This document shows positions 6,809-32,285 of a DNA stretch of 64,000 nt, in pieces. Position 1 is the stretch's first letter. The number at the start of each line of letters is the position of its first letter. The stretch is taken from assembly GCF_988242995.1 (NCBI RefSeq), contig NZ_OZ547043.1; one strand, written 5' to 3'. The notes beneath the pieces were generated by a model that did no database searches, was not told the DNA's origin, and saw nothing but the letters and a program-made list of their open reading frames with translations. Both the position numbers and the translations under genes were made by a program.

Positions 6809-8024
6809 CGATAATTCTCTTAATAAGCGCCCCACGTTTAAAAGAGCATTACGCAACATCAGTATGACCAGCATATTTATCACTATGATGCTGATCTGGT
6901 TGCTGCTTTCCGTGACCTCGGTGCTGACCCTGAAACAGTACGCGCAAAAAAACCTGGCACTGACAGCAGCAACAATGACTTACAGTCTGGAAGCAGCGGT
7001 CGTTTTTGCCGATGGCTCTGCAGCAACTGAAACACTGGCAGCGCTGGGGCAGCAAGGCCAATTTTCAACTGCAGAAGTGCGTGATAAGCAGCAAAATATT
7101 CTGGCATCCTGGCATTACACCCGTAAGGATCCAGGCGATACTTTCAGTAATTTCATAAGCCACTGGCTCTTCCCTGCCCCCATCGTTCAGCCGATTCGTC
7201 ACAATGGTGAAACCATTGGCGAAGTTCGCTTAACCGCTCGCGACAGTTCAATCAGCCATTTCATCTGGTTTTCGCTCGCTGTCCTGACCGCCTGCATTCT
7301 GCTGGCATCAGGCATCGCAATTACCCTCACCCGCCATTTGCACAATGGTCTGGTTGAAGCGTTAAAAAACATCACCGATGTCGTACATGATGTGCGTTCC
7401 AACCGCAATTTTTCCCGACGAGTTTCGGAAGAACGTATCGCAGAGTTTCACCGCTTCGCTCTCGACTTCAACAGTCTGCTGGATGAAATGGAAGAGTGGC
7501 AGCTTCGTTTACAGGCCAAAAATGCGCAGCTTCTGCGTACCGCGCTACATGACCCATTAACCGGGCTGGCTAACCGCGCAGCGTTTCGTAGCGGTATCAA
7601 TACGTTGATGAACAATTCCGATGCCCGAAAAACGTCGGCGTTACTATTTCTTGATGGCGATAATTTCAAATATATCAATGATACCTGGGGTCATGCGACG
7701 GGCGATCGTGTCTTGATTGAGGTAGCAAAACGGTTAGCTGAATTTGGCGGGCTGCGACATAAAGCATACCGCCTGGGCGGCGATGAATTCGCGATGGTGC
7801 TCTATGATGTACAGTCGGAATCTGAAGTGCAGCAGATATGCTCAGCACTGACACAAATCTTTAATCTCCCGTTTGATCTTCATAATGGCCATCAGACCAC
7901 CATGACATTAAGCATTGGTTACGCGATGACCATTGAGCACGCCTCTGCGGAAAAATTACAAGAGCTTGCCGATCACAATATGTATCAGGCCAAACACCAG
8001 CGTGCCGAAAAGCTGGTGAGATAA
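6798..8024 (+). CDS. dgcN: Membrane diguanylate cyclase (GGDEF)
   Basis: 408 aa ORF, two TM segments, GGDEF motif [10 protein letters not shown]; overlaps yfiR stop. Confidence 0.9.
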
Positions 8025-8039
8025 CAAGGATATATCGAT

Positions 8040-8522
8040 ATGATAAAGCACCTGGTAGCACCCCTGATTTTCACCTCACTAATACTGACTGGCTGCCAGT
8101 CCCCTCAGGGAAAGTTTACTCCTGAGCAAGTCGCCGCTATGCAATCTTATGGATTTACTGAATCCGCCGGCGACTGGTCGCTGGGCTTATCAGATGCCAT
8201 TCTGTTCGCAAAAAATGACTACAAATTGCTCCCGGAAAGCCAGCAACAGATCCAAACCATGGCAGCCAAATTGGCCTCGACAGGGCTAACACATGCCCGT
8301 ATGGATGGACACACCGATAACTATGGTGAAGACAGTTACAACGAAGGCTTATCATTGAAACGGGCGAATGTCGTGGCCGATGCATGGGCTATTGGTGGAC
8401 AAATTCCACGCAGCAATCTCACCACACAGGGTTTAGGAAAAAAATATCCCATAGCCAGTAACAAGACCGCCCAGGGCCGCGCCGAGAACCGCCGCGTCGC
8501 AGTGGTGATTACAACCCCTTAA
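8040..8522 (+). CDS. yfiB: OmpA-family outer membrane lipoprotein YfiB
   Basis: 160 aa ORF, lipobox LTGC, OmpA-like C-terminus (NRRV). Confidence 0.9.
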   Translation: MIKHLVAPLIFTSLILTGCQSPQGKFTPEQVAAMQSYGFTESAGDWSLGLSDAILFAKNDYKLLPESQQQIQTMAAKLASTGLTHARMDGHTDNYGEDSYNEGLSLKRANVVADAWAIGGQIPRSNLTTQGLGKKYPIASNKTAQGRAENRRVAVVITTP

Positions 8523-8540
8523 AACACGAGCAAACAGATA

Positions 8541-8570
8541 AAAAAGGGCCAGCCAATTGGCCAGCCCTTC
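8541..8570 (-). terminator. Probable terminator downstream of rplS
   Basis: Palindromic GC stem (aagggc...gccctt around gccaattggc) flanked by an A-run, which is a U-run on the minus strand. Confidence 0.5.
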
Positions 8571-8597
8571 TTAACAGGATGTCGCTTAAGCGAAACC

Positions 8598-8948
<351 letters not shown>

Positions 8949-20006: not shown

Positions 20007-20369
20007 GGGGCTGATTCTGGATTCGACGGGATTTGCGAAACCCAAGGTGCATGCCGAGGGGCGGTTGGCCTCGTAAAAAGCCGCAAAAAATAGTCGCAAA
20101 CGACGAAAACTACGCTTTAGCAGCTTAATAACCTGCTTAGAGCCCTCTCTCCCTAGCCTCCGCTCTTAGGACGGGGATCAAGAGAGGTCAAACCCAAAAG
20201 AGATCGCGTGGAAGCCCTGCCTGGGGTTGAAGCGTTAAAACTTAATCAGGCTAGTTTGTTAGTGGCGTGTCCGTCCGCAGCTGGCAAGCGAATGTAAAGA
20301 CTGACTAAGCATGTAGTACCGAGGATGTAGGAATTTCGGACGCGGGTTCAACTCCCGCCAGCTCCACCA
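20007..20369 (+). ncRNA. ssrA: tmRNA (transfer-messenger RNA)
   Basis: Begins ggggctgattctggattcgacggg, contains tag-peptide reading frame (…gcaaacgacgaaaactacgctttagcagcttaa), ends …gggttcaactcccgccagctccacca. Confidence 0.97.
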
Positions 20370-20480: not shown

Positions 20481-20534
20481 ATTGGTATACGTTTAGGTAT
20501 ACGGTAAGATGTATACCTAAATGCGTATACCAAT
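20481..20534. repeat. Imperfect 54-bp palindrome of GGTATACGTTTAGGTATAC motifs upstream of int (candidate Int arm-type / operator sites)
   Basis: attggtatacgtttaggtatac … gtatacctaaatgcgtataccaat; same motif recurs at 32027-32049 near attR. Confidence 0.55.
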
Positions 20535-20553
20535 TCATGAAGGAACGGCCAAA

Positions 20554-21753
20554 GTGGCAAGAACGACACGTCCCCTGACCAACACTGAAGTTCTGCGCGC
20601 TAAAGCGTTAGAAAAGGATCTAACGTTGCATGATGGCGATGGCCTTTTTCTGCTCGTTAAAACGAACGGTAAGAAATTATGGCGTTTCCGCTACCAAAAG
20701 CCAGTAACAAAACAGCGGACCATGATTAGTTTAGGAACCTTCCCTGCACTATCCTTGGCTGAAATCAGAAATGTGCGAGCTAAGTATCTTTCCTTGTTAG
20801 CCAAGGGGATCGATCCACAAACACACAATGAACAAGTCACACAACAACAACAAATTGCAGTAGAAAGTATTTTTTCAAACGTTGCTAAAAATTGGTTTGC
20901 CATTAAACGCAATAGCGTTACACCTGATTATGCAAAGGATATATGGCGATCCTTAGAGAAGGACATTTTCCCTGCTATCGGAGAGATTCCTGTTCAGGAA
21001 ATAAAAGCACGTATATTAATTGAAGCCCTAGAACCAATTAAGGCCCGCGGTGCACTCGAGACTGTTCGTCGTTTGGTGCAACGTATTAACGAAATTATGA
21101 TCTACGCTGTCAATACCGGATTAATTGAGGCTAATCCTGCGTCAGGTATTGGCATGGCTTTTGATAAACCCAAAAAGCAAAATTTGCCAACGCTGCGGCC
21201 AGAAGAATTACCTAAACTGATGCATTCTCTAGTAATGTCAAACCTGTCTATTCCTACTCGTTGTCTGATCGAATGGCAACTACTGACACTCGTTCGCCCT
21301 TCAGAAGCCTCTGGCGCCCGCTGGGATGAGATCGATTTAGAATCCAAACTTTGGAGAATTCCTGCTGAAAGGATGAAAGCAAAGCGCGAACATATAGTTC
21401 CTTTATCATCTCAAGCTTTAATTATTCTTGAAGTAATGAAACCCATAAGTGCTCATCGTGAACATATATTTCCTAGCAGGAATAACCCTCAAGAACCGAT
21501 GAATAGCCAAACAGCAAATGCAGCATTAAAACGCATAGGGTACGGAGGAAAGTTAGTTGCACATGGACTCCGTTCTATTGCCAGCACTGCATTAAATGAA
21601 GCCGAATTTAATTCTGACATTATTGAATCAGCTCTTGCACATGTTGATAAAAATGAGGTGAGAAGAGCATATAACCGCTCCACTTATCTTGATAAACGTA
21701 AAGAGATGATGGCTTGGTGGGGAAATTTTATATATAAAAATAATTCATTATAA
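20554..21753 (+). CDS. int: Tyrosine recombinase, P4-type integrase
   Basis: Start chosen at GTG after aggaa RBS giving 399 aa (…ARTTRPLTNTEVLRAKA…), typical of P4-family integrases; ORF track starts at 20521; C-terminal catalytic region (HGLRS…, …Y). Confidence 0.88.
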   Translation: MARTTRPLTNTEVLRAKALEKDLTLHDGDGLFLLVKTNGKKLWRFRYQKPVTKQRTMISLGTFPALSLAEIRNVRAKYLSLLAKGIDPQTHNEQVTQQQQIAVESIFSNVAKNWFAIKRNSVTPDYAKDIWRSLEKDIFPAIGEIPVQEIKARILIEALEPIKARGALETVRRLVQRINEIMIYAVNTGLIEANPASGIGMAFDKPKKQNLPTLRPEELPKLMHSLVMSNLSIPTRCLIEWQLLTLVRPSEASGARWDEIDLESKLWRIPAERMKAKREHIVPLSSQALIILEVMKPISAHREHIFPSRNNPQEPMNSQTANAALKRIGYGGKLVAHGLRSIASTALNEAEFNSDIIESALAHVDKNEVRRAYNRSTYLDKRKEMMAWWGNFIYKNNSL

Positions 21754-21764
21754 AAGGTATTACA

Positions 21765-22799
21765 ATGAATATTGATTCTATAAAACTTCATTTACAAAAT
21801 TTTTTCACAAATAATCCAACTGTTCTTATCGGTTCTGGCCTCTCTCTCGGTGAGGGGATTCCAGGTATGAAAACATTGGGAGAACATCTTAATACAACTA
21901 TCCCCAAATTAGTAAGCGGGGATCTTATAAGAGAATGGGGTATCATAAGTTCCAAACTAAATAATGGTATGGGACTTGAAGATGCCATGGCATTTCTTAA
22001 AGATGAAAGTGAACTTATCCCATTAATTATTCAGCACACCGCAGATCTTATTTTAAAGCATGAAAATACTGTAATATGCTCTGTAATCAATGGAGAAAAA
22101 AATCTAGCATTTACATCTTTATTGAATCACTTAACTTTTAATCAAAATGAATTGATAATTATAACTCCAAACTATGATAGACTAATTGAAATAGCATGTG
22201 AAATTGCTGGTCTAGAAATTTCAACAGGATTTATCAATAGTTATCATTGTATAAATAATCCTGAAGTTGAGTTAGATAAATTCAAAATCACCCACTCTAT
22301 CAAAACCACACGAGGTAAATCTACAGTTCAAATTAGAACTAAAAAACACGTTAAAATATTTAAACCTCATGGTAGTCTTGATTGGTTCAAGGCTGACGAT
22401 AAAATTATCAGGACCAGCTTTCAAAATAAACATAAAAGATTAATTATTACACCAGGTACAAGTAAATTCAGAGCTGGATATCAGCAGCCTTTTGATTGGC
22501 ATAGAGAAAAAGCAAACCATTATATCAAAAGAGCAAAATCACTATTAATTATTGGCTATGGGTTTAATGATGAGCAGTTAGAAGTACATTTGAAATCAAA
22601 AATACGTGAAAAAATACCTGTTTTATTAATGACATATGAATTGACATCAAACGCTCAAAAAATATGTGATGATAATCCTTCTATAACATATGTTATTGCA
22701 GAAGGAAACAATTCCATCGTTTGTATCGATGGCATTAAATATAAAATCGAAAAGAATATTTGGTCTTTAAATGAGTTTGTTAAAGAGGTACTTAAATAA
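21765..22799 (+). CDS. SIR2-like (NAD-binding/NADase family) protein, putative defence effector
   Basis: 344 aa; Rossmann-like VLIGSGLS, TPNYD and KPHGSL motifs as in SIR2/DUF4020 defence proteins; AT-rich; 11 bp after int stop. Confidence 0.75.
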   Translation: MNIDSIKLHLQNFFTNNPTVLIGSGLSLGEGIPGMKTLGEHLNTTIPKLVSGDLIREWGIISSKLNNGMGLEDAMAFLKDESELIPLIIQHTADLILKHENTVICSVINGEKNLAFTSLLNHLTFNQNELIIITPNYDRLIEIACEIAGLEISTGFINSYHCINNPEVELDKFKITHSIKTTRGKSTVQIRTKKHVKIFKPHGSLDWFKADDKIIRTSFQNKHKRLIITPGTSKFRAGYQQPFDWHREKANHYIKRAKSLLIIGYGFNDEQLEVHLKSKIREKIPVLLMTYELTSNAQKICDDNPSITYVIAEGNNSIVCIDGIKYKIEKNIWSLNEFVKEVLK

Positions 22800-24583
22800 T
22801 GGAATATTACGTCATTAACACTGATGAAACATGCTTTATCGGACGAATCGCAAATGTTGATACCGATCGTGCTATTATCATTTCAGAGTCTCCAGAGATC
22901 ATACAAGAACTAACCGTTTTTGACTTGGTTGCTATTGAAGGCAATACCCCCACAGAGTTTCTTGTTGGTATCATTGAAAAAGTAAAACGCTCTATTGGAG
23001 AAATACAAACTATTGATACTGAAGAAAATATTGAAGATGACAGTGAAAAAGATTTCGATAATATCTTCCAAACTTATTCTATCGATCATGATATTCTTCA
23101 AGTAGCTCTTATCGGCACTTTCTGGGAGGTTTACGGGGATAGAAGGAAAATTTTTAAAAGAGGAGCACAATATTTTCCAAAAGTTGAAAAACAAGCATTT
23201 CTTATAAAAAAAGACAGTCTTGAGAAATTAATGTCGGCAGTCGACAATGATACTCCTGATGAGCTAAAACTCATACTAGGCAACTATGGAAATACCAATT
23301 CACGAGCAGTTGCAAATGGGGATAAATTATTTCAGAGACATGCTGCCCTATTGGGGAGTACTGGTTCAGGTAAAAGTTGGACAGTTGCGTCATTACTAGA
23401 ACAAGCCTCAAAATTAAAATACAACAATATTGTACTTTATGATCTTCATGGTGAATACAAAACTTTATCTGATACACATAATAAATCGAACCGCCCGAGC
23501 ATAGCCGATTATTTTAAAATTGCAAGCCCAGGAAATATCGACGATGTAAATAGTATTTATGTACCTCATTGGTTATTAAACAAAGAAGAAATGCTATCAC
23601 TGTTGTTAGATAGAAGCGATAGCAATGCACCTAATCAGGCAGCAAGATTTAGCTACCACGTGAGAGAGCTAAAAAAAGAATACATCACACACAACAGATT
23701 AATACACTTAGAAGATTGTTTGACTGTTGATGCTCCAATACCCTACTCTATCGAGGATCTTATTAGCAGACTGCACGATGATGATCAAGGTATGAAAAAA
23801 GGTACTAATAATAAAGAAATAAAAGGTGATTGGAATGGAAAACTAACAAGATTCATAAGCAGGTTAAGAACAAAAGTAGACGACAAGAGGAACTGTTTTC
23901 TATTCTCAAATAAACCAGAACACAACCAATATGATTGGTTGGAGAAATACGCTTGTAAAATTTTAAAATCAGATAGCACAGATCATGGCATTAAAATAAT
24001 TGATTTTTCTGAAGTTCCTTCAGATATTATGCCTATTGTTATTGGTGTATTGACCAGATTTTTATACAACGTCCAATTTTGGAGATGTGAGACCGAACGA
24101 ACCCCTATAGCATTCGTTTGTGACGAAGCTCATATTTATTTACCCGCTAAGGATACCACTGAGGCTGAAACAAAAATATCCTTATCAATATTCGAGAAAA
24201 TTGCTAAAGAAGGCAGAAAGTACGGAGTATCTTTATTAGTCGTCAGCCAAAGACCTTCTGATGTTAGCAGAACAATACTAAGTCAATGTAATAACATAAT
24301 TTCTCTCAGACTAAGTAATTATAGAGATCAACAGGTAGTTAGTCGGTTAATGCCTGATTCATTGAGTTCATTAACATCCATACTACCAATTCTTGATACT
24401 GGGGAAGCAATAGTTCTTGGCGACTCTGTTCTATTACCAGCTAGAATAAAATTGAATCCACCAACACTCAAGCCCGATAGCGCAACCAGAGCTTTTTGGA
24501 ATGAGTGGGGGGCAATTGAAGCAAAAGAAATCTCTATAGCAAATGCTGTTGAATCACTCAGGAGACAATCTCGTAATCGCTAA
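22799..24583 (+). CDS. HerA-like P-loop ATPase (FtsK/HerA superfamily), partner of the SIR2 protein
   Basis: 594 aa; Walker A GSTGSGKS, Walker B FVCDEAH; start overlaps SIR2 stop (TAATG). Confidence 0.75.
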   Translation: MEYYVINTDETCFIGRIANVDTDRAIIISESPEIIQELTVFDLVAIEGNTPTEFLVGIIEKVKRSIGEIQTIDTEENIEDDSEKDFDNIFQTYSIDHDILQVALIGTFWEVYGDRRKIFKRGAQYFPKVEKQAFLIKKDSLEKLMSAVDNDTPDELKLILGNYGNTNSRAVANGDKLFQRHAALLGSTGSGKSWTVASLLEQASKLKYNNIVLYDLHGEYKTLSDTHNKSNRPSIADYFKIASPGNIDDVNSIYVPHWLLNKEEMLSLLLDRSDSNAPNQAARFSYHVRELKKEYITHNRLIHLEDCLTVDAPIPYSIEDLISRLHDDDQGMKKGTNNKEIKGDWNGKLTRFISRLRTKVDDKRNCFLFSNKPEHNQYDWLEKYACKILKSDSTDHGIKIIDFSEVPSDIMPIVIGVLTRFLYNVQFWRCETERTPIAFVCDEAHIYLPAKDTTEAETKISLSIFEKIAKEGRKYGVSLLVVSQRPSDVSRTILSQCNNIISLRLSNYRDQQVVSRLMPDSLSSLTSILPILDTGEAIVLGDSVLLPARIKLNPPTLKPDSATRAFWNEWGAIEAKEISIANAVESLRRQSRNR

Positions 24584-24627: not shown

Positions 24628-24727
24628 CGCCCGCTTTGCGGGGCGGTTTCAGTGCAGTTGCACTGACACGCTCAGGCCGCGCCGGGAATGGCGCGGTCTG
24701 CAGAAAATGAGGCAGGAAAACGCATGC

Positions 24728-24762
24728 AAAGCCATGCACCTTATCGATGCATGGCTTTTTTC
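24728..24762 (+). terminator. Rho-independent terminator between cargo operon and psu
   Basis: gccatgca-ccttatcga-tgcatggc hairpin followed by TTTTTT. Confidence 0.6.
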
Positions 24763-24791
24763 AGTAAAAACGGGCGGATTTTCGGGGAATT

Positions 24792-25364
24792 TTACACAGA
24801 CTGATGTGATGCCAGTTGCGCACTTTTACGCGAAAAAATCATGTTCTGCGCAGGAGTGAATTTTTCACGGCTGTCATCCACCGAAGCCGCGTCAGGCCTG
24901 AATCCGATGGTCGTTAAAATGTCGCTATCCTGTGCGGAATAATTAATTTTTTCACCCTTCGCAAGCCAGGACTGGAGGGCTTCACGCAGGGCATCTGTGG
25001 CACGCTGTATGGCACAGTTTCGGGCAATGGCCGTCAGCTCACTGTAGCCCATCAGCTCCGGTGCCAGTGCCGCCGCCAGTGCTGTGCCGTGCTGCTGCAT
25101 AAAATCATTCAGCCGGTCGCGGATGCTGATGTGCTGAACGGCTTCATGCGAACGAATATAACGACCGGCGGCCTGATTCACCTGCCATTTTCTGACTTCG
25201 ATAATATTGCGTAATTCGTCCAGGCGACTGACGTTTCTGCCTTCTCCTGACAGAAGCCGCAGGTATTCCTGTTCGGCCGCTGCCAGCTCATTTTTGCGTT
25301 GCAGCCATGCTGCTTTGTTATTCTGACAGGTGTCAAAGGCCTGCTGTAAGGCTGTGCTTTCCAT
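24792..25364 (-). CDS. psu: Polarity suppression protein Psu (P4-like)
   Basis: 190 aa ORF MESTALQQAFDTCQNNKAAWLQRK…, recalled as P4 Psu; length matches. Confidence 0.85.
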   Translation of the reverse strand: MESTALQQAFDTCQNNKAAWLQRKNELAAAEQEYLRLLSGEGRNVSRLDELRNIIEVRKWQVNQAAGRYIRSHEAVQHISIRDRLNDFMQQHGTALAAALAPELMGYSELTAIARNCAIQRATDALREALQSWLAKGEKINYSAQDSDILTTIGFRPDAASVDDSREKFTPAQNMIFSRKSAQLASHQSV

Positions 25365-25437
25365 CGTTATCTCTTTCTCATCATGCTGAAGAATAAAAAT
25401 ACGGTGTGCGGCGACGGCCGGTGTTAACCGGCAGCCC

Positions 25438-25938
25438 TCATTCCAGACGCAGCGAATATGATTGTGTTTTTAACCGTACTGGCGGCAGTTCCTGTTTTTC
25501 ATGCAGGCGTTCTGCCAGTTCGTCCGGCGTGACCGGGCGGACAATGAAACGGTTGATGGTCTGAAGCGTTTTAAACACCAGACCACAGCCCGGATCCGTG
25601 CACACATAAAAACGCTCGGTGACTTCCTGAGACAGACGCCGCGATGTTCTTGACAGTGCAAGGCCTTTACATCTCCGACAACAATATCCGGTAACAAGCA
25701 TTCTTTTCGGCCGTTTCATACTGCCGGAGGCTGACGTCAGTGAATCGCGGTATCTCTGTTTGCCTGAAATGTATTCCATTCCTGAATCTTTACAGTCAGA
25801 GAAAAAGCTTTCACTCGCTTCAAATGTCGCAGAGCAATAAATATTCCGGCACTGTGCAATCATTATCTTGGTGCCATCGTCCATGAAATGTGCGCGACGG
25901 GTGTGAGCAACATGTCCACACGACGGGCAGTAAATCAT
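25438..25938 (-). CDS. delta: Late-gene transcriptional activator Delta (Ogr/Delta zinc-finger family)
   Basis: 166 aa; CPSCGH…C…C zinc-finger at N-terminus and a second Cys cluster; same size as P4 Delta. Confidence 0.85.
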   Translation of the reverse strand: MIYCPSCGHVAHTRRAHFMDDGTKIMIAQCRNIYCSATFEASESFFSDCKDSGMEYISGKQRYRDSLTSASGSMKRPKRMLVTGYCCRRCKGLALSRTSRRLSQEVTERFYVCTDPGCGLVFKTLQTINRFIVRPVTPDELAERLHEKQELPPVRLKTQSYSLRLE

Positions 25939-26669
25939 GACAGCAGCCCTCTGGCCTTAAGCTCTGCTCCCTGCTGGTCTATTTTGTCCTGCCACACCTT
26001 GCGCTGTGCCGGTGTGCCTGCCACCTCATAATCCATGTGCGGGAGTGTTGCCGCTGACAGTCCGGCCAGCCGGAGAACCGGCTCGCCGGTGAGGCTGATT
26101 TGCATCTGTTTTATTTTCTGTTCCAGCGATGATTTCACCTGCTGCATGACAGCCTTTTCCGGCGCGACGTAGCCCTGATGGCCGGTGGTGTTGGCGAGCG
26201 GATTTTCCTGTACCAGGATGCTCAGATGCATTGCCCGGACAAGCGCCTCACAGGTTTCATTCAGGGCGTGTTCCAGCTCATGCTCTGCATACAGACTCAG
26301 CAGGTGATGATGTGCCTTCCGGTAGGCGGTGGCCGTGCTGTCACACGCCCCTTTCAGGCGTTCACATTCAAAATTCAGCACCACGGCCAGATTGTCATAT
26401 TCCTGTACCAGCTCCCGGCGTGCCACGCGCTCAATGTGGCGCTGTTTCAGCTCATCGCTCAGGACACCACCGGCTGCACGAAAGGCCGTGCGCCAGTCGT
26501 CAGCGTCGTTTCCGTCGGCCTGCGTCAGCGCATTTTTTTCCTGCTCTGCCCGTTCAATGGCCGTGATGGTCTCATCCATCAGGCGGGCGTTCTCAAGATG
26601 AGCGGCTCTGGCCTTTTCCAGTTGTGCCAGCGCGGGTTGCAGATATTCAGGGATGGTGTTGTCAGACAT
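25935..26669 (-). CDS. sid: Capsid size determination protein Sid (P4-like)
   Basis: Start chosen at MSDNTIPEYLQPALAQLEKAR (244 aa); ORF track extends 22 codons upstream; overlaps delta start. Confidence 0.8.
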   Translation of the reverse strand: MSDNTIPEYLQPALAQLEKARAAHLENARLMDETITAIERAEQEKNALTQADGNDADDWRTAFRAAGGVLSDELKQRHIERVARRELVQEYDNLAVVLNFECERLKGACDSTATAYRKAHHHLLSLYAEHELEHALNETCEALVRAMHLSILVQENPLANTTGHQGYVAPEKAVMQQVKSSLEQKIKQMQISLTGEPVLRLAGLSAATLPHMDYEVAGTPAQRKVWQDKIDQQGAELKARGLLS

Positions 26670-26703
26670 TTTCCGGCTCCTCGTCACTTCAGGTTGAGAA
26701 AAT

Positions 26704-26759
26704 TGTGACGTACACCGGACAACAACACGACGCATTGCAGATGTGCCAGCCCTGACACA
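26704..26759 (-). promoter_or_regulatory. Candidate Psid late promoter with two TGT-N12-ACA Delta/Ogr-type dyads
   Basis: tgt-gacgtacaccgg-aca (26704-26721) and tgt-gccagccctgac-aca (26742-26759), centres 38 bp apart, immediately upstream of sid. Confidence 0.6.
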
Positions 26760-26838
26760 GGAGACTCATCCTCAGACCGGCAAGCCAGGAAAAGGTCGCA
26801 GGAAAAACCGGCTTACTGTTTGTTTTTTTATATTTTAC

Positions 26839-26942
26839 TGTTCACCTCTGTTCACCTTAAGAAAAAAGATAAGTAATACAGTAAGTTAAAGGATGAACAA
26901 TCGCAGTAATGACTGTTCACCGTCTGTTCACCACTGTTCACC
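26839..26942. repeat. Cluster of five direct TGTTCACC octamers (P4 ori-like alpha-binding iterons)
   Basis: tgttcacc at 26839, 26849, 26914, 26925, 26935; same octamer recurs in repeats downstream of alpha. Confidence 0.7.
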
Positions 26943-27101
26943 CGCTCATGGACTTTTTGTGCTGTTTACTACTGTTTGTTTTTATTAATTCGCCGGGAAT
27001 GAATAAGAAGAAACGATTTGTATTTCACTATAAAAATTACGAATTGCTTTAAGTGGCTTTAAATGACTTTAAGTGGAGATGAACAAAAAATACACAAGCA
27101 T

Positions 27102-27119
27102 TGTAAGGCTGCCGGAACA
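27102..27119 (+). promoter_or_regulatory. Candidate Delta-dependent leftward-operon promoter element (TGT-N12-ACA)
   Basis: tgt-aaggctgccgga-aca upstream of the AlpA/Vis-like gene; an imperfect second dyad follows. Confidence 0.35.
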
Positions 27120-27221
27120 AATCCCCCCTGTTGCGTCTGCCGAAAATATTCACAAAATAAAGCGCTACCCGAAGCCGGACGGACTTATCCGGTGCTGTAT
27201 GGACATTAACGAGGTAGCCCG

Positions 27222-27488
27222 ATGCAATCTGTTTTTTCTTCCCCGTCTCCCGCCCCAGTGACGCCACTGATGCCGCTGCCGGACATCACGCAGGAGCGTT
27301 TTTTACGTCTGCCGGAAGTGATGCACCTGTGCGGCCTGTCACGCTCGACCATCTATGAACTTATCCGTAAGGGGGAATTTCCGCCGCAGGTGAGTCTTGG
27401 CGGTAAAAATGTGGCCTGGCTGCACTCTGAAGTCACCGCATGGATGGCCGGGCGCATTGCCGGACGCAAACGGGGGTACGACGCATGA
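27222..27488 (+). CDS. AlpA/Vis-family small DNA-binding protein (excisionase/regulator)
   Basis: …[52 protein letters not shown] is AlpA-like HTH; a later start at Met-17 (27270) is possible. Confidence 0.75.
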
Positions 27489-27886
27489 TGATGCCCGCTC
27501 TGCAAAAAGTCCCTTTTTCTGGCTTGCCTTTTTCCGGCATTTGCGGATATAGTTTTTCCGCTGCCGCAAAATCGGCAGCCGGGCGTGGAAACCCGAGTAT
27601 GTTATCGGCGACATATGACGCGCCATGCGTCTTTTTTTGTGTCGCAATCAACGCCACAGAGCGCCAGATTATGGTGTGGTGTGTGGTCAGTCGAGCAAAT
27701 GGCACTCCGTGCATTCTGCCCGCGTCCGCTCATTATACCGCAGAGTCAATGGTAGCTCAGGCGGGGCAGCCTCCGCGCTGGCCGGTTTCCGATAACGCCG
27801 GTATTTCCACCCCCGTCTGGGCTATCGCCATCGAGCGTGGAAACTCCGGCGATAGCGTCATTTACGCTGTTATCGGAGGTTGCCTT

Positions 27887-28084
27887 ATGGCTACGACCCT
27901 TATCCCCTCACACCCTGAATTTGTCTTTGTGTTTGCGGCTGTCCGTCGCGCAGACCGTCATCCCCGTATCTGTATGCTTCGCACCGTCGCCGGTGATGAA
28001 CGCAGCGCCCGCCGTTCCCTTGTCCGTGACTATGTGCTCTCCCTTGCTGCCCGTCTGCCGGTGGTGGAGGTGTCCCGTGCGTAA
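27887..28084 (+). CDS. Small hypothetical protein (65 aa) in satellite left operon
   Basis: ATG 7 nt after GGAGG; lies within long frame 27440-28084; overlaps next gene start. Confidence 0.35.
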
Positions 28085-28364
28085 TAAAAAAGCCCCTCAG
28101 ACCGTCTCAGCACGTCATGACGCCCGTGAACACCTCAGCATTGAGGCTTACCATAAGCTCAACCGCGCCAGCGCCGTATCCCAGTTTGTTGGGGGTGATT
28201 TGATTCACCGTGAACTCTCCGGCCTGCATCAGCTCTACATTCCGCATATTTTCAGCTACCTGAATGAAGATATTGATTTTGTGCTGAATGAGCTGAAAGC
28301 CAAAGGCCTGTGCCGCGATTTTCTCGCCCAGCAGAAAGACCGGGGAGACAGGACGCATGTTTGA
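28077..28364 (+). CDS. Hypothetical 95-aa protein, candidate P4 epsilon-like (anti-repressor) by position and size
   Basis: GTG start after ggagg; 95 aa, same size as P4 epsilon and directly upstream of a 151-aa ORF; sequence identity not verified. Confidence 0.4.
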
Positions 28365-28812
28365 TTTTCCCCAGCCCGGTGAGATTTACCGTTCTGCCGG
28401 TTTTCCCGATGTGGCCGTGGTCGGCATTCTGGAAGACGGTATTCCGTGGGAAATGCCGTACCGCTGCCCGGACATTGTCTGGAACCCGTACCGCCGTAAA
28501 TTCAGTATCCTTGTGCGTATCCTCGCTGACGGGCGCACCACAGACATCCCGCTGGGGCGTTTTCTGCGGGAATTTACCTGTGACCGTCCTGACCTGTTTA
28601 AACGCAGCCCCGTAAACCGGCATGCGGTACTGAAAGAAATGGCCGGAGACCCGGAATTACAGAAATGGCGGGAGAAATATCTGGATATTTACCCGCAGGA
28701 CCCTGTTCCGGTCAGCCGGGCGGCACCGGTGGCGCGGGAATGGCGGGAAATTCCCCGCACGGAGCCTGACCCGGAAACCACCCCGGATAACAGTTACCGC
28801 AATTATCTGTAA
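28357..28812 (+). CDS. Hypothetical protein, P4 orf151-like
   Basis: 151 aa ORF, start overlaps preceding stop (ATGTTTGA); position and length match P4 orf151. Confidence 0.55.
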   Translation: MFDFPQPGEIYRSAGFPDVAVVGILEDGIPWEMPYRCPDIVWNPYRRKFSILVRILADGRTTDIPLGRFLREFTCDRPDLFKRSPVNRHAVLKEMAGDPELQKWREKYLDIYPQDPVPVSRAAPVAREWREIPRTEPDPETTPDNSYRNYL

Positions 28813-28947
28813 TTAAAAAACGACACCCGAAAAATTAAATGTGCGTATTCGCGCAGGGATACGCACGTCTTCAGGAGACGCAGATATGCCTTATCAGTTA
28901 ATGCAACCGGCACGGAATGCAGTCATCTGTCACAGGGAGGAAAACAA

Positions 28948-29268
28948 ATGAAAACACCCTTACCGCCCGTCTTACGCGCTGCCCTTTACCGTCGCGCTGT
29001 CGCCTGTGCCTGGCTGACCGTGTGCGAACGTCAGCACCGCTACCCGCATCTCACCCTTGAGTCACTGGAGGCGGCCATCGCCGCTGAGCTGGAAGGCTTT
29101 TATCTGCGCCAGCACGGTGAGGAAAAAGGGCGTCAGATAGCCTGTGCCCTGCTGGAAGATTTAATGGAATCCGGCCCCCTGAAGGCCGCGCCGTCGCTGT
29201 CCTTTCTCGGGCTGGTTGTGATGGATGAACTCTGTGCCCGTCACATAAAAGCGCCGGTACTGCACTGA
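28948..29268 (+). CDS. Hypothetical 106-aa protein, candidate Cnr-like copy-number regulator
   Basis: 106 aa ORF immediately upstream of alpha, as for P4 cnr; assignment by position and size only. Confidence 0.4.
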
Positions 29269-29282
29269 AGGAGAACAACACC

Positions 29283-31616
29283 ATGAAAATGAACGTAACC
29301 GCCACCGTCAGCCATGCGCTCGGCCACTGGCCGCGTATTCTCCCGGCGCTGGGGATTCAGGTGCTGAAGAACCATCATCAGCCCTGTCCGGTCTGTGGCG
29401 GGAGTGACCGCTTCCGTTTTGATGACAGGGAGGGGCGCGGCACCTGGTACTGCAATCAGTGTGGTGCCGGTGACGGCCTGAAACTGGTTGAAAAGGTGTT
29501 TGGTGTCTCCCCGTCCGACGCGGCCGCAAAGGTGGCTGCCGTGACCGGCAGTCTGCCCCCGGCTGACCCGGCAGTGACGGCTGCCGCCGTTGCTGAAACA
29601 GACGCTGCCCGGAAGAACGCCGCCGCACTGGTACAAACCCTGATGGCAAAAACCCGTCCCGGAACCGGTAACGCCTACCTGACCCGCAAGGGCTTTCCCG
29701 GCCGGGAATGCCGGATGCTGACCGGCACACACAGAGCCGGTGGCGTGAGCTGGCGCGCCGGTGACCTTGTGGTGCCACTGTATGACGACAGCGGCGAACT
29801 GGTTAACCTTCAGTTAATCAGTGCTGACGGCCGTAAGCGCACCCTGAAAGGCGGACAGGTCAGGGGCACCTGTCACACCCTTGAAGGACAGAATCAGGCC
29901 GGAAAACGTCTGTGGATAGCGGAGGGATACGCGACCGCACTTACCGTGCATCACCTGACCGGTGAAACGGTGATGGTGGCGCTTTCTTCCGTGAATCTCC
30001 TTTCTCTGGCCAGCCTTGCCCGGCAGAAGCATCCGGCCTGTCAGATTGTCCTTGCTGCTGACCGTGACCTCAGCGGTGACGGCCAGAAAAAAGCCGCCGC
30101 AGCCGCAGATGCGTGTGAAGGTGTTGTTGCCCTGCCGCCGGTCTTCGGTGACTGGAATGATGCCTTCACGCAGTACGGCGGGGAAGCCACCCGTAAGGCC
30201 ATTTATGATGCCATCCGGCCACCGGCTGAAAGCCCGTTCGACACCATGAGCGAAGCGGAGTTTTCCGCCATGAGTACCAGCGAAAAGGCCATGCGTATCT
30301 ATGAGCATTACGGCGAGGCGCTCGCGGTCGATGCCAACGGCCAGCTTCTGTCCCGCTATGAAAATGGTGTCTGGAAGGTGCTGCCGCCACAGGACTTTGC
30401 CCGGGATGTGGCCGGGCTGTTTCAGCGTCTGCGAGCGCCGTTCTCCTCCGGGAAGGTGGCCTCCGTGGTGGACACCCTGAAGCTGATTATTCCGCAGCAG
30501 GAAGCCCCCTCCCGCCGCCTGATTGGCTTTCGTAACGGCGTGCTCGACACGCAGAACGGCACGTTCCACCCGCACAGTCCGTCACACTGGATGCGCACCC
30601 TGTGCGATGTGGATTTCACCCCGCCGGTGGACGGTGAAACGCTGGAAACCCACGCCCCCGCCTTCTGGCGCTGGCTTGACCGTGCCGCCGGTGGCCGTGC
30701 GGAAAAACGCGACGTGATTCTGGCTGCACTGTTTATGGTGCTGGCAAACCGCTACGACTGGCAGCTCTTTCTGGAGGTGACCGGTCCCGGCGGCAGCGGC
30801 AAAAGTATCATGGCCGAAATCGCCACCCTGCTGGCCGGGGAGGATAACGCCACGTCGGCCACCATCGAGACGCTGGAATCCCCGCGTGAACGTGCCGCGT
30901 TAACTGGCTTCTCACTGATACGCCTGCCGGATCAGGAAAAATGGAGCGGCGACGGTGCCGGACTCAAGGCCATCACCGGCGGCGATGCGGTGTCCGTTGA
31001 CCCGAAATACCGGGATGCGTACTCCACGCACATCCCGGCGGTGATTCTGGCCGTGAACAATAACCCGATGCGCTTCACCGACCGCAGCGGCGGCGTGTCA
31101 CGCCGGCGGGTGATTATTCACTTCCCGGAACAGATAGCCCCGCAGGAGCGCGACCCGCAGCTTAAGGACAAAATCACCCGCGAGCTGGCGGTCATCGTGC
31201 GTCACCTGATGCAGAAGTTCAGCGACCCGATGCTCGCCCGGTCACTGCTTCAGTCCCAGCAGAACTCAGACGAGGCACTGAACATCAAACGGGATGCCGA
31301 CCCGACGTTTGATTTTATCGGCTATCTGGAAACCCTGCCGCAGACCAGCGGCATGTATATGGGGAACGCCAGTATCATCCCGCGTAATTACCGTAAATAC
31401 CTCTATCACGCCTATCTGGCCTACATGGAGGCAAACGGCTACCGGAATGTACTCAGTCTGAAAATGTTCGGACTGGGGCTGCCGGTGATGCTGAAAGAAT
31501 ACGGGCTGAATTACGAGAAGCGCCATACCAAACAGGGGATACAGACCAACCTGACGCTGAAAGAAGAAAGCTACGGCGACTGGCTGCCAAAATGTGACGA
31601 CCCTGCAACAGCCTGA
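29283..31616 (+). CDS. alpha: Alpha primase-helicase replication protein (P4-like)
   Basis: 777 aa, same length as P4 alpha; zinc-binding primase motif CPVCGGSDRFRF…YCNQCG; Walker A GPGGSGKS. Confidence 0.9.
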   Translation: MKMNVTATVSHALGHWPRILPALGIQVLKNHHQPCPVCGGSDRFRFDDREGRGTWYCNQCGAGDGLKLVEKVFGVSPSDAAAKVAAVTGSLPPADPAVTAAAVAETDAARKNAAALVQTLMAKTRPGTGNAYLTRKGFPGRECRMLTGTHRAGGVSWRAGDLVVPLYDDSGELVNLQLISADGRKRTLKGGQVRGTCHTLEGQNQAGKRLWIAEGYATALTVHHLTGETVMVALSSVNLLSLASLARQKHPACQIVLAADRDLSGDGQKKAAAAADACEGVVALPPVFGDWNDAFTQYGGEATRKAIYDAIRPPAESPFDTMSEAEFSAMSTSEKAMRIYEHYGEALAVDANGQLLSRYENGVWKVLPPQDFARDVAGLFQRLRAPFSSGKVASVVDTLKLIIPQQEAPSRRLIGFRNGVLDTQNGTFHPHSPSHWMRTLCDVDFTPPVDGETLETHAPAFWRWLDRAAGGRAEKRDVILAALFMVLANRYDWQLFLEVTGPGGSGKSIMAEIATLLAGEDNATSATIETLESPRERAALTGFSLIRLPDQEKWSGDGAGLKAITGGDAVSVDPKYRDAYSTHIPAVILAVNNNPMRFTDRSGGVSRRRVIIHFPEQIAPQERDPQLKDKITRELAVIVRHLMQKFSDPMLARSLLQSQQNSDEALNIKRDADPTFDFIGYLETLPQTSGMYMGNASIIPRNYRKYLYHAYLAYMEANGYRNVLSLKMFGLGLPVMLKEYGLNYEKRHTKQGIQTNLTLKEESYGDWLPKCDDPATA

Positions 31617-31623
31617 CCCACCT

Positions 31624-31648
31624 GACCGGCATCTGCCGGTCTTTTTTT
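31624..31648 (+). terminator. Rho-independent terminator after alpha
   Basis: gaccggca/tgccggtc stem followed by TTTTTTT. Confidence 0.6.
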
Positions 31649-31666
31649 ATCCCTGAATCCCCCGAA

Positions 31667-31962
31667 GGTGAACAATCCAGTGTTCACCCTTCACCGTATA
31701 TTCACCCGTTATCACACTGAAATTAAAAGAGAAAAACGAAAGGTGAACAGTGTGAACAATCAAATCAAAAAAAACTTTTTTTCTTCCTGTGTGATTTTCA
31801 GCACGGGAAATTAATCCCCTGCACAAGTCACACCGGCAGAATGCCGGAGGTGAAGAATCGAATGTTCACCCTTCACCCATTATTCACCACCTATCACTCT
31901 GAAATAAAAGGAGAAAACAGAAAGGTGAACAGTGTGAACAGTTCTTTCGAAAAAAAATTTTT
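31667..31962. repeat. crr-like region: two ~115-bp direct repeats carrying TGTTCACC / GGTGAACA iterons
   Basis: Repeat units at ~31667-31790 and ~31849-31962 (ggtgaa.aatc..atgttcacccttcacc…aaaggtgaacagtgtgaaca…aaaaaa.ttttttt), period ~182 bp. Confidence 0.75.
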
Positions 31963-32026
31963 TTCCTGTACGATATAGCATCAATCCAAGTAAAAATGCG
32001 CTTTCATTTCACATTAACTTACAGCC

Positions 32027-32049: not shown

Positions 32050-32106
32050 CACAAAAAATGAATTAAACAAAATCATTAAAAATCAAAGCAATACAATATT
32101 TATTCA

Positions 32107-32124
32107 AACTCCGCCAGCTCCACC
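32107..32124 (+). repeat. attR: imperfect direct repeat of ssrA 3' end
   Basis: actccgccagctccacca versus ssrA end actcccgccagctccacca (20351-20369). Confidence 0.75.
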
Positions 32125-32285
32125 AATCATGATTGAACGGTGCAAGGACAACACCAACAAAAACAGGAAGTTATAAGTCTCAGCAAGACACCGACCAGAC
32201 GGTGAGGAGACAAAAAAGGATACGCAAAGGAGCCGCGGCTCCTGGTGATATGAAAGCCCACAGATGTGGGCTTTTTCGTTGATGG

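Follow-up and report, generated by a model that had tools for sequence, protein, structure and literature searches.

A C4/CI-family RNA immunity region in a P4-like satellite prophage, with a specificity predicted to differ from that of P4

Results

We analyzed a stretch of 64,000 nucleotides (nt) of contig NZ_OZ547043.1 (NCBI RefSeq assembly GCF_988242995.1), referred to below as the window, and focused on positions 27490-28084, which lie between a vis/alpA gene and an epsilon gene. This interval very probably controls, through RNA, the immunity of a satellite prophage that derives from P4 and is inserted at ssrA. All sequence and structure tests applied place the system in the C4/CI family, and its synteny, targets, and nested genes give it a P4-type architecture. 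Systems of this kind have long been known, from P1/P7 c4, P4 CI, Gifsy-1 IsrK, and the N15-like phages, and standard Rfam models find the one described here; what is new is the specificity allele, the breadth of the specificity polymorphism, and a conserved alternative helix. The initial annotation of this DNA, made from the sequence alone, had expected a P4-type CI RNA with its targets and no protein repressor, and this expectation was borne out by three Rfam matches and by the 96.2% identity of positions 27150-28450 to the P4 immunity region (1301 nt).

Judged from its sequence, the region is the P4 leader itself in a slightly different version and not a distant analogue. A backbone of 7.3 kb (24628-31963) is 98.0% identical to P4 4291-11624, and psu, delta, sid, vis, kil, epsilon, and alpha are all full length and 98% identical to those of P4. 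In P4 (NC_001609, approximately 8,170-8,760) the order is the same, with vis followed by an eta frame that encloses the promoter PLE, seqA, the terminator t1, the CI gene, seqC, and kil, and then by epsilon; the promoter and terminator positions, the CI stems, the 65-amino-acid (aa) kil, and the 199-aa eta are also shared. The whole region was found in 1,038 of 5,426 complete E. coli genomes. Its placement in the initial annotation between an AlpA-like and an epsilon-like gene agrees with matches to Pfam Phage_AlpA and PF25738. It had also been described as GC-rich, which holds only to a moderate degree, the GC fraction ranging from 0.48 to 0.69 per 80-nt interval with its peak over the CI gene.

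The CI RNA gene and the leader RNA

The CI (C4-type) antisense RNA gene was located at 27745-27832 on the plus strand. A covariance-model search, proposed in the initial annotation, matched this segment to Rfam C4 (RF01695) at 70.4 bits against a gathering score of 45, with model positions 1-87 of 87 covered. We infer a mature CI RNA of 79 nt at approximately 27751-27829; the dyad marked in the P4 record X02534 is the equivalent of 27751-27826. The core at 27751-27829 has a long closing stem around hairpin 1 (27767-27780) and hairpin 2 (27781-27802), with a minimum free energy (MFE) of -42.5 kcal/mol and a z score of -3.7. It has an acceptor-like stem and an invariant CC in the 3' tail (GCCA, 27827-27830), and CI RNA has been listed as a suggested substrate of E. 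coli RNase P (PMC5499578).

A SeqA/IsrK-like leader RNA lies at 27560-27638 on the plus strand. The Rfam isrK model (RF01394) aligned in full to 27560-27637 (74.7 bits, gathering score 50), and c4-a1b1 (RF03163) matched 27547-27599, upstream of the C4 gene, at 51.5 bits (gathering score 46.7), both on the plus strand. The leader consists, in order, of a hairpin at 27560-27579, a hairpin at 27580-27595 with the target b1 in its loop, the target a1/seqA, and the intrinsic terminator t1, which is the third hairpin of the isrK model. A terminator scan placed t1 at 27617-27638 (plus strand), with GACGCG-CCA-UGCGUC at 27617-27631 followed by U7, and the homologous site in phiKO2 is annotated as a terminator. 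A promoter scan found a PLE-like sigma-70 promoter at 27524-27553 (plus strand), having a -35 element TTGCCT (27524-27529), an 18-nt spacer, and a -10 element TATAGT (27548-27553) that coincides with the -10 annotated in X02534. The two hexamers are constant among relatives and the spacer is variable. A transcription start near 27560, where the isrK model begins, is plausible.

In the literature, IsrK and C4 have been named as seqA and CI (PMC3632133), the Rfam C4 and isrK models have been found to detect P4 CI and seqA (PMC10111431), and IsrK has been called a structural homolog of the P4 SeqA RNA in an account of antisense-controlled termination by CI with seqA and seqC (PMC4825925). The distance from the isrK leader to the C4 gene is about 107 nt in P4-like elements (27638-27745 in the window), where it is variable in length and sequence and open in the eta frame, versus about 25 nt in N15-like and other phages (loci L012, L003, L038, and L124-L126 compared).

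Recognition elements and their complementarity

The a' (seqB) specificity element of CI, UUUCCGAUAACG (27786-27797), is the 12-nt loop of hairpin 2 with the core CCGAUAAC, and the b' element, UUUCCAC (27804-27810), lies unpaired in the CI junction. Upstream of CI, the b1 target GUGGAAA (27585-27591) occupies the loop of the second leader hairpin and forms 7 bp with b', and the a1/seqA target UGUUAUCGG (27600-27608) forms 9 pairs with the a' loop, 8 of them Watson-Crick and 1 G-U. Downstream, the b2 target GUGGAAA (27837-27843), part of seqC, makes 7 pairs with b', and the a2/seqC target UGUUAUCGGAGG (27868-27879) makes 12 contiguous pairs with the a' loop, 9 Watson-Crick and 3 G-U. All six elements are on the plus strand. 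The target core GUUAUCGG is present both at seqA (27601), just past the second leader hairpin, and at seqC (27869), and seqC overlaps the kil Shine-Dalgarno sequence GGAGG (27875-27879). The order of the elements fits antiparallel pairing, with one target set upstream and one downstream of CI on the same transcript.

Part of this complementarity had been seen in the initial annotation, which listed GTTATCGG at 27601 and 27869, as we also find, and CCGATAAC at 27790; the latter is present but begins at 27789 (27789-27796). The match had been dismissed as within chance expectation, a judgment contradicted by the occurrence statistics, by a second triplet that had been missed, and by the compensatory changes and co-variation described below. 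Together, the 8-mer and its complement have 7 occurrences in the window against 1.63 expected, a count reached in none of 100 shuffles, and three of the seven occurrences lie within 276 nt. The specified 8-mer appeared twice in 0.015% of mononucleotide shuffles of the 595 nt. The second triplet comprises GTGGAAA at 27585 and 27837 and TTTCCAC at 27804, in matching order, and the 10-mer GCGTGGAAAC occurs in the window only at the two GTGGAAA places.

Specificity relative to P4

All six recognition sites differ from those of P4, and every change preserves pairing. The P4 a' loop, UAUCCUGUGAAG, differs from that of the window at 5 of 12 bases, and its core CCUGUGAA pairs with the P4 target UUCACAGG in the place of the window core CCGAUAAC. 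For b', two of seven bases differ, UUCUCAC with GUGAGAA in P4 versus UUUCCAC with GUGGAAA in the window. The 1301 nt compared contain 49 differences in total, and the six sites, which make up only 54 nt of this length, hold 20 of them (odds ratio 25, Fisher p 6e-17). The summed duplex energies on the window targets were -49.0 kcal/mol for the cognate CI and -24.3 kcal/mol for the P4 CI, so that cross-pairing by P4 CI reaches about half the cognate energy. The window element is not in P4's own immunity group, seqA, seqB, and seqC all being different. From the compensatory differences at all six recognition sites, we predict that the window copy is heteroimmune to P4.

Co-variation and diversity among relatives

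Viral contigs were scanned with one restrictive pattern, which yielded 120 loci (L003-L122); these carry 39 combinations of 32 different a' loops with 4 b' elements. The reverse complement of a locus's own loop was found at the seqA and seqC positions in nearly all loci, the apparent exceptions being mostly G-U pairs, and the own loop matched the targets over a median of 8-9 nt versus 4-5 nt for the loops of other types. Pairing was then counted in an alignment (A3) of 30 types, which omits 9 of the 39, namely two seqA hybrids, six indel-rich or divergent loci, and L007, which duplicates the window specificity; these omissions make the pair percentages that follow slightly favourable, and a check with all 39 gives the same conclusion. 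Between seqA and CI, 95.2% of cells were paired and 11 of 16 pairs were compensatory, and between CI and seqC the values were 91.7% and 10 of 19. For both duplexes, none of 500 shuffles reached the observed percentage paired or the co-variation score, and slid controls were at most 54% paired. The b1:b' helix (alignment positions 7-13/104-110) and the b2:b' helix were each 100% paired with 3 compensatory pairs, and compensatory pairs made up 8 of 9 for a1:a' and 7 of 12 for a2:a'. Over all 39 types the C4 structure itself was paired in 99.8% of 1052 cells, with 6 compensatory pairs and none of 500 shuffles as high; hairpin 2 and some of the closing stem were prescribed by the search pattern, which left those pairs no room to vary. 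The complementarity is the specificity determinant, and not a chance match, because the comparative evidence from compensation relative to P4, co-variation, and duplex energies is decisive.

The a' and b' elements assort independently, as CCGATAAC is found with both TTTCCA and TTCTCA, and TTCGAG is found with three b' types. A change of b' alone needs coordinated change at three separated sites. In locus L037 (CI match 8820-8858, plus strand) seqA is of type GTGAGAA/TCTAACGG, and CI and seqC are of type CCTGTGAA/TTTCCA; in L039 (CI match 6955-6993, plus strand) the a1 site is CTTATTGG versus an a' loop of TCATTGAG. These two natural hybrids, whose seqA does not match their own CI, suggest tolerance of a non-cognate seqA and the occurrence of recombination in the immunity region. 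Taken as a whole, the survey suggests that immunity specificity is highly polymorphic. Large censuses of P4-like elements did not look at specificity, and the RNA goes unmentioned in PMC8628076.

A conserved alternative helix

The segment GGCGAUAGC at 27848-27856 (plus strand) is perfectly complementary to the 3' strand and tail of CI at 27821-27829 (GCUAUCGCC). The two would form a helix of 9 bp, the partner segment lying 18 nt downstream, that is outside the Rfam C4 model. In the 30 aligned types 270 of 270 cells were paired, with 4 compensatory pairs, and all 9 pairs were present in 74 of 86 unique loci; the helix is also found in N15-like phages and in the most divergent locus. Folded in isolation, the alternative hairpin has an energy of -18.8 kcal/mol and would present b2 in an 8-nt loop, CGUGGAAA, identical to the upstream b1 loop. 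The helix excludes both the mature CI fold and a predicted hairpin at 27844-27878 (-25 kcal/mol) that would sequester the kil Shine-Dalgarno sequence. Co-variation of this latter hairpin was no better than in shuffles (75.6% versus 75.0% paired), a result owed in part to shifts of the alignment register there. No description of the 27821-27829/27848-27856 helix was found in the accessible literature.

Nested reading frames

An eta-like open reading frame (ORF) of 199 aa at 27485-28084 (plus strand) runs through PLE, seqA, t1, the CI gene, and seqC, with kil as its in-frame 3' part. PGAP, starting at the ATG at 27485, calls the same coding sequence of 600 nt in an E. coli locus of 99.7% identity. 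About 33 of 40 immunity types keep the eta frame open, and in the subsets free of indels that were tested (6-29 unique sequences for each region) it had no stop codon, in contrast to the many found in the other frames. Upstream of kil, the ratio of nonsynonymous to synonymous polymorphism (pN/pS) in this frame was 0.7-1.1, without a frame-specific signal. The nesting of eta and kil and a translation-dependent read-through have been described for P4 (PMC10111431), and our crude pN/pS result is in line with the view, published there, that late-promoter transcripts get through because eta is translated and not because of its product (PMC10111431).

The 65-aa ORF at 27887-28084 (plus strand), which the initial annotation had noted for its good ribosome-binding site (the GGAGG at 27875-27879), is kil, encoding an Icd-like cell-division inhibitor (NCBIfam NF033153, 76.1 bits, cut-off 25). 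Among relatives its frame-specific pN/pS was 0.51, versus 1.30 and 1.12 in the other frames. By analogy with P4, kil would be the first gene translated from PLE transcripts. Its 5' part is C-rich and G-poor, with a GC skew of about -0.2, a composition compatible with a Rho loading site. The ORFs of the region had been set down as low-confidence, a description that does not suit kil or the long eta frame, nested as they are in P4. Nor do a small RNA and a coding frame stand here as alternatives, as had been supposed, since the RNA gene, the open eta frame, and kil overlap.

The ORF at 27440-28084 matched Pfam PF10554 (Phage_ASH) at 80.8 bits against a cut-off of 26. The match spans 27548-27922 and covers the PLE -10 element, seqA, t1, the CI gene, and seqC, up to the kil start. 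By pN/pS this stretch shows no frame-specific purifying selection, and what the Phage_ASH family models may be, for the most part, conserved RNA elements in translation. RefSeq NC_001609 still gives the name "transcriptional repressor" to the old 137-aa cI frame (P4p10; L001 2019-2435), and in phiKO2 and KpLi5 small "repressor" or "Icd-like" coding sequences are annotated where Rfam places C4 (L124 1626-1802 and L125 1462-1596).

A private substitution in CI hairpin 1

The window carries a private G-to-C substitution at 27776 (plus strand), which leaves a C-C mismatch (27771/27776) at the innermost position of CI hairpin 1, where the pair closes the tetraloop. Only 1 of 125 related sequences has C at this position, the pair being invariant in the other 124, and C at 27776 was absent from the 5,426 complete E. 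coli genomes, 90 of which match the CI allele with G at 27776 over 88 of 88 positions. The MFE is -42.5 kcal/mol with C versus -47.4 kcal/mol with G, a cost of approximately 5 kcal/mol. The change may weaken CI, may be neutral, or may be an error of sequencing.

Genomic setting

The prophage adjoins ssrA, which encodes transfer-messenger RNA (tmRNA, 20007-20369), and its integrase gene (20521-21753) lies next to ssrA. A SIR2 (344 aa) and HerA (594 aa) anti-phage defence pair at 21765-24583 occupies the variable int-psu hotspot, where P4 holds other genes. Integration at ssrA with a different integrase, this hotspot cargo, and the one private stem mutation set the window element apart from P4 in addition to the six recognition elements. 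The psu, delta, and sid genes are on the minus strand between the SIR2-HerA pair and vis/alpA (27222-27488, plus strand, 88 aa; Phage_AlpA 74.2 bits). The latter equals P4 ORF88, "excisionase and transcriptional regulator", and comes first after the upstream late promoter; the eta ATG overlaps its TGA stop (ATGA). The epsilon gene (28077-28364, plus strand, 95 aa; PF25738, 170 bits), for the helper derepression protein, is in the same place as in P4 and by analogy would be the downstream gene held silent by the immunity system. It is followed by orf151 and the cnr-like orf106, and then by the alpha primase gene (29283-31616).

A short repeat of the ssrA 3' end at 32103-32276 is attR-like and matches the "tmRNA pseudogene / attP" of a phage record. 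After it, an ORF of 1565 aa, autotransporter-like, lies on the minus strand at 32286-36983. The repeat and this ORF may mark a second island in tandem at ssrA.

Discussion

By homology with P4, the constitutive promoter PLE inside the eta frame would transcribe a leader with the order b1, a1 (seqA), t1, CI gene, b2, a2 (seqC), kil, epsilon, and the replication genes. Transcripts extending past t1 would be processed into a stable CI RNA of approximately 79 nt, with RNase P making the 5' end, and the a' loop and b' element of CI would pair with seqA and seqC of new transcripts. Pairing at seqC would hide the kil ribosome-binding site; with kil untranslated, transcription would end before epsilon and alpha, and both would stay off. 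The prophage would remain quiescent and would exclude superinfecting satellites of the same specificity. Late-promoter transcripts would escape because ribosomes translating first vis and then eta run through the region. Briani et al. reportedly showed in 2000 that CI pairing with seqA enhances termination at t1, autoregulating CI, and are also said to have placed an atypical Rho-independent terminator, t4, between cI and kil and a Rho-dependent one, timm, within kil.

Among the closest known systems is the retronphage phiR73, a P4-like satellite reportedly described by Sabbattini et al. in Virology in 1996 as heteroimmune to P4 through its CI RNA. The immunity specificity of this P4 relative is reportedly set, on the same principle, by the CI loop and its targets. 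Its sequence was not among the phage-database matches. In the immI region of P1/P7, Citron and Schuster are said to have described in 1990 a c4 antisense RNA that has a1b1 and a2b2 as its targets and lies ahead of icd and ant. By covariance model, P1/P7 c4 is of the same RNA family as the window RNA (RF01695 and RF03163 come from Weinberg et al. 2010, PMC2864571), and it has the same two-element (a', b') recognition, with a target set upstream and another over the ribosome-binding site of an Icd-like gene that precedes an antirepressor-type gene. P1/P7 c4 and P4-type CI are probably alike in being processed by RNase P (PMC5499578). P1 differs in being a plasmid prophage and in having Ant as its downstream effector, not epsilon and alpha.

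The isrK-orf45-anrP locus of Salmonella Gifsy-1 has an isrK-family leader, a C4-like processed RNA (STnc1160), a small ORF, and an antirepressor (PMC4825925). There, the short leader RNA was shown to be a trans activator, whereas the window leader is read, by homology with P4, as a CI target. The N15-like linear plasmid-prophages phiKO2, KpLi5, and Kpn74 have the arrangement leader-C4-icd-antA-antB, with isrK and C4 matches in the same order, and share the helix between the C4 3' strand and a downstream segment. They differ in their shorter leader-C4 distance and in having no eta-type ORF; a long ORF through the RNA gene is a P4-like feature that is absent in more distant loci.

Several points weigh against reading 27490-28084 as a P4-type immunity region that acts as outlined above. 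Family membership, structure, the complementarities with their co-variation, and the nested ORFs come directly from the data, but expression, processing, and termination are carried over to this copy from P4, and the details of t1, t4, and timm draw on secondary citations. The heteroimmunity to P4 is likewise a prediction from pairing. The conserved alternative helix competes with the CI closing stem. Folding of the RNA, which the initial annotation had also proposed, gave the canonical structure for the CI core, but this structure is missing from the MFE fold of the whole 341-nt leader; we treated long-range MFE as unreliable and relied on the covariance model and on pair counts instead. Finally, the predicted energies indicate that G27776C could make CI RNA less stable or less well processed.

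This last point leads to the possibility that the prophage is cryptic and that G27776C destabilises its CI RNA, leaving the immunity system in place but weakened or inactive. The loss of the tetraloop-closing pair, by a base unique among the 125 sequences and absent from the complete E. coli genomes, speaks for it. Nonetheless, a' and b' are intact in this copy, as are the four targets, the promoter, t1, and the closing stem; the backbone genes are full length, the C4 score is still 25 bits above threshold, and an error of sequencing at 27776 is possible. We regard a weakened system as improbable.

It is also unlikely that the leader acts, additionally or instead, like Gifsy-1 IsrK, with the t1-terminated RNA working in trans to activate downstream translation. 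The full-length isrK match would agree with such a role, as would the conserved alternative helices around seqC, which suggest a conformational switch. In Salmonella, IsrK activates orf45-anrP translation by pairing with a region matching the C4-like RNA (PMC4825925), and IsrK-like elements of P4-like prophages were required in transposon-directed insertion-site sequencing (TraDIS) of S. Typhi (PMC3632133). Against this, P4 seqA has been described only as a CI target (PMC4825925, PMC10111431), and the Gifsy-1 locus has a different downstream gene set. The sequence offers nothing by which to tell one direction of control from the other.

A protein repressor encoded by an overlapping ORF, either the old 137-aa cI/Ash frame or Eta, is very improbable as the immunity determinant. 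The repressor label in NC_001609, the Phage_ASH score of the long ORF, and an eta frame free of stops in most relatives would favor it, but the Phage_ASH match consists of the RNA elements themselves, from the PLE -10 to the kil start, and the sequence varies chiefly at sites whose co-variation is that of RNA duplexes. The stretch that would encode the repressor gave no frame-specific protein signal, where kil gave one, and we rejected this candidate as an explanation while keeping it as a low-probability rival. The literature assigns P4 immunity to CI RNA (PMC4825925, PMC10111431, PMC3632133). That the short complementarities, each only 7-9 nt, are chance matches in a GC-rich spacer with no functional RNA can be set aside with near certainty, given three Rfam families above their gathering thresholds, the occurrence statistics, the six-site compensatory change relative to P4, and the co-variation among 30-39 types, which already refutes it.

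With the RNA immunity control region as the preferred reading, the 600 bp that were formerly unresolved are now fully explained as a known RNA immunity switch with kil and eta nested in it. Genome pipelines miss the CI RNA and label such a region only "Icd-like protein". The copy described here represents a natural immunity swap on an otherwise 98% P4 backbone, and lysogens are therefore expected not to exclude P4 itself. The window element and P4 thus form a ready pair for testing loop-target pairing in satellite-satellite exclusion.

We further propose, tentatively and as a possibility that we do not favor, that P4-like satellites jointly have a large combinatorial specificity code and, in the 27821-27829/27848-27856 helix, a functional conformational switch. 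If the helix is such a switch, the atypical Rho-independent terminator reported between cI and kil could have its structural basis in it; alternatively, the helix could act in precursor processing. If the combinatorial code is real, the window element is one allele of it, and the pattern would imply diversifying selection for heteroimmunity, arising among satellites that compete for the same hosts and helpers.

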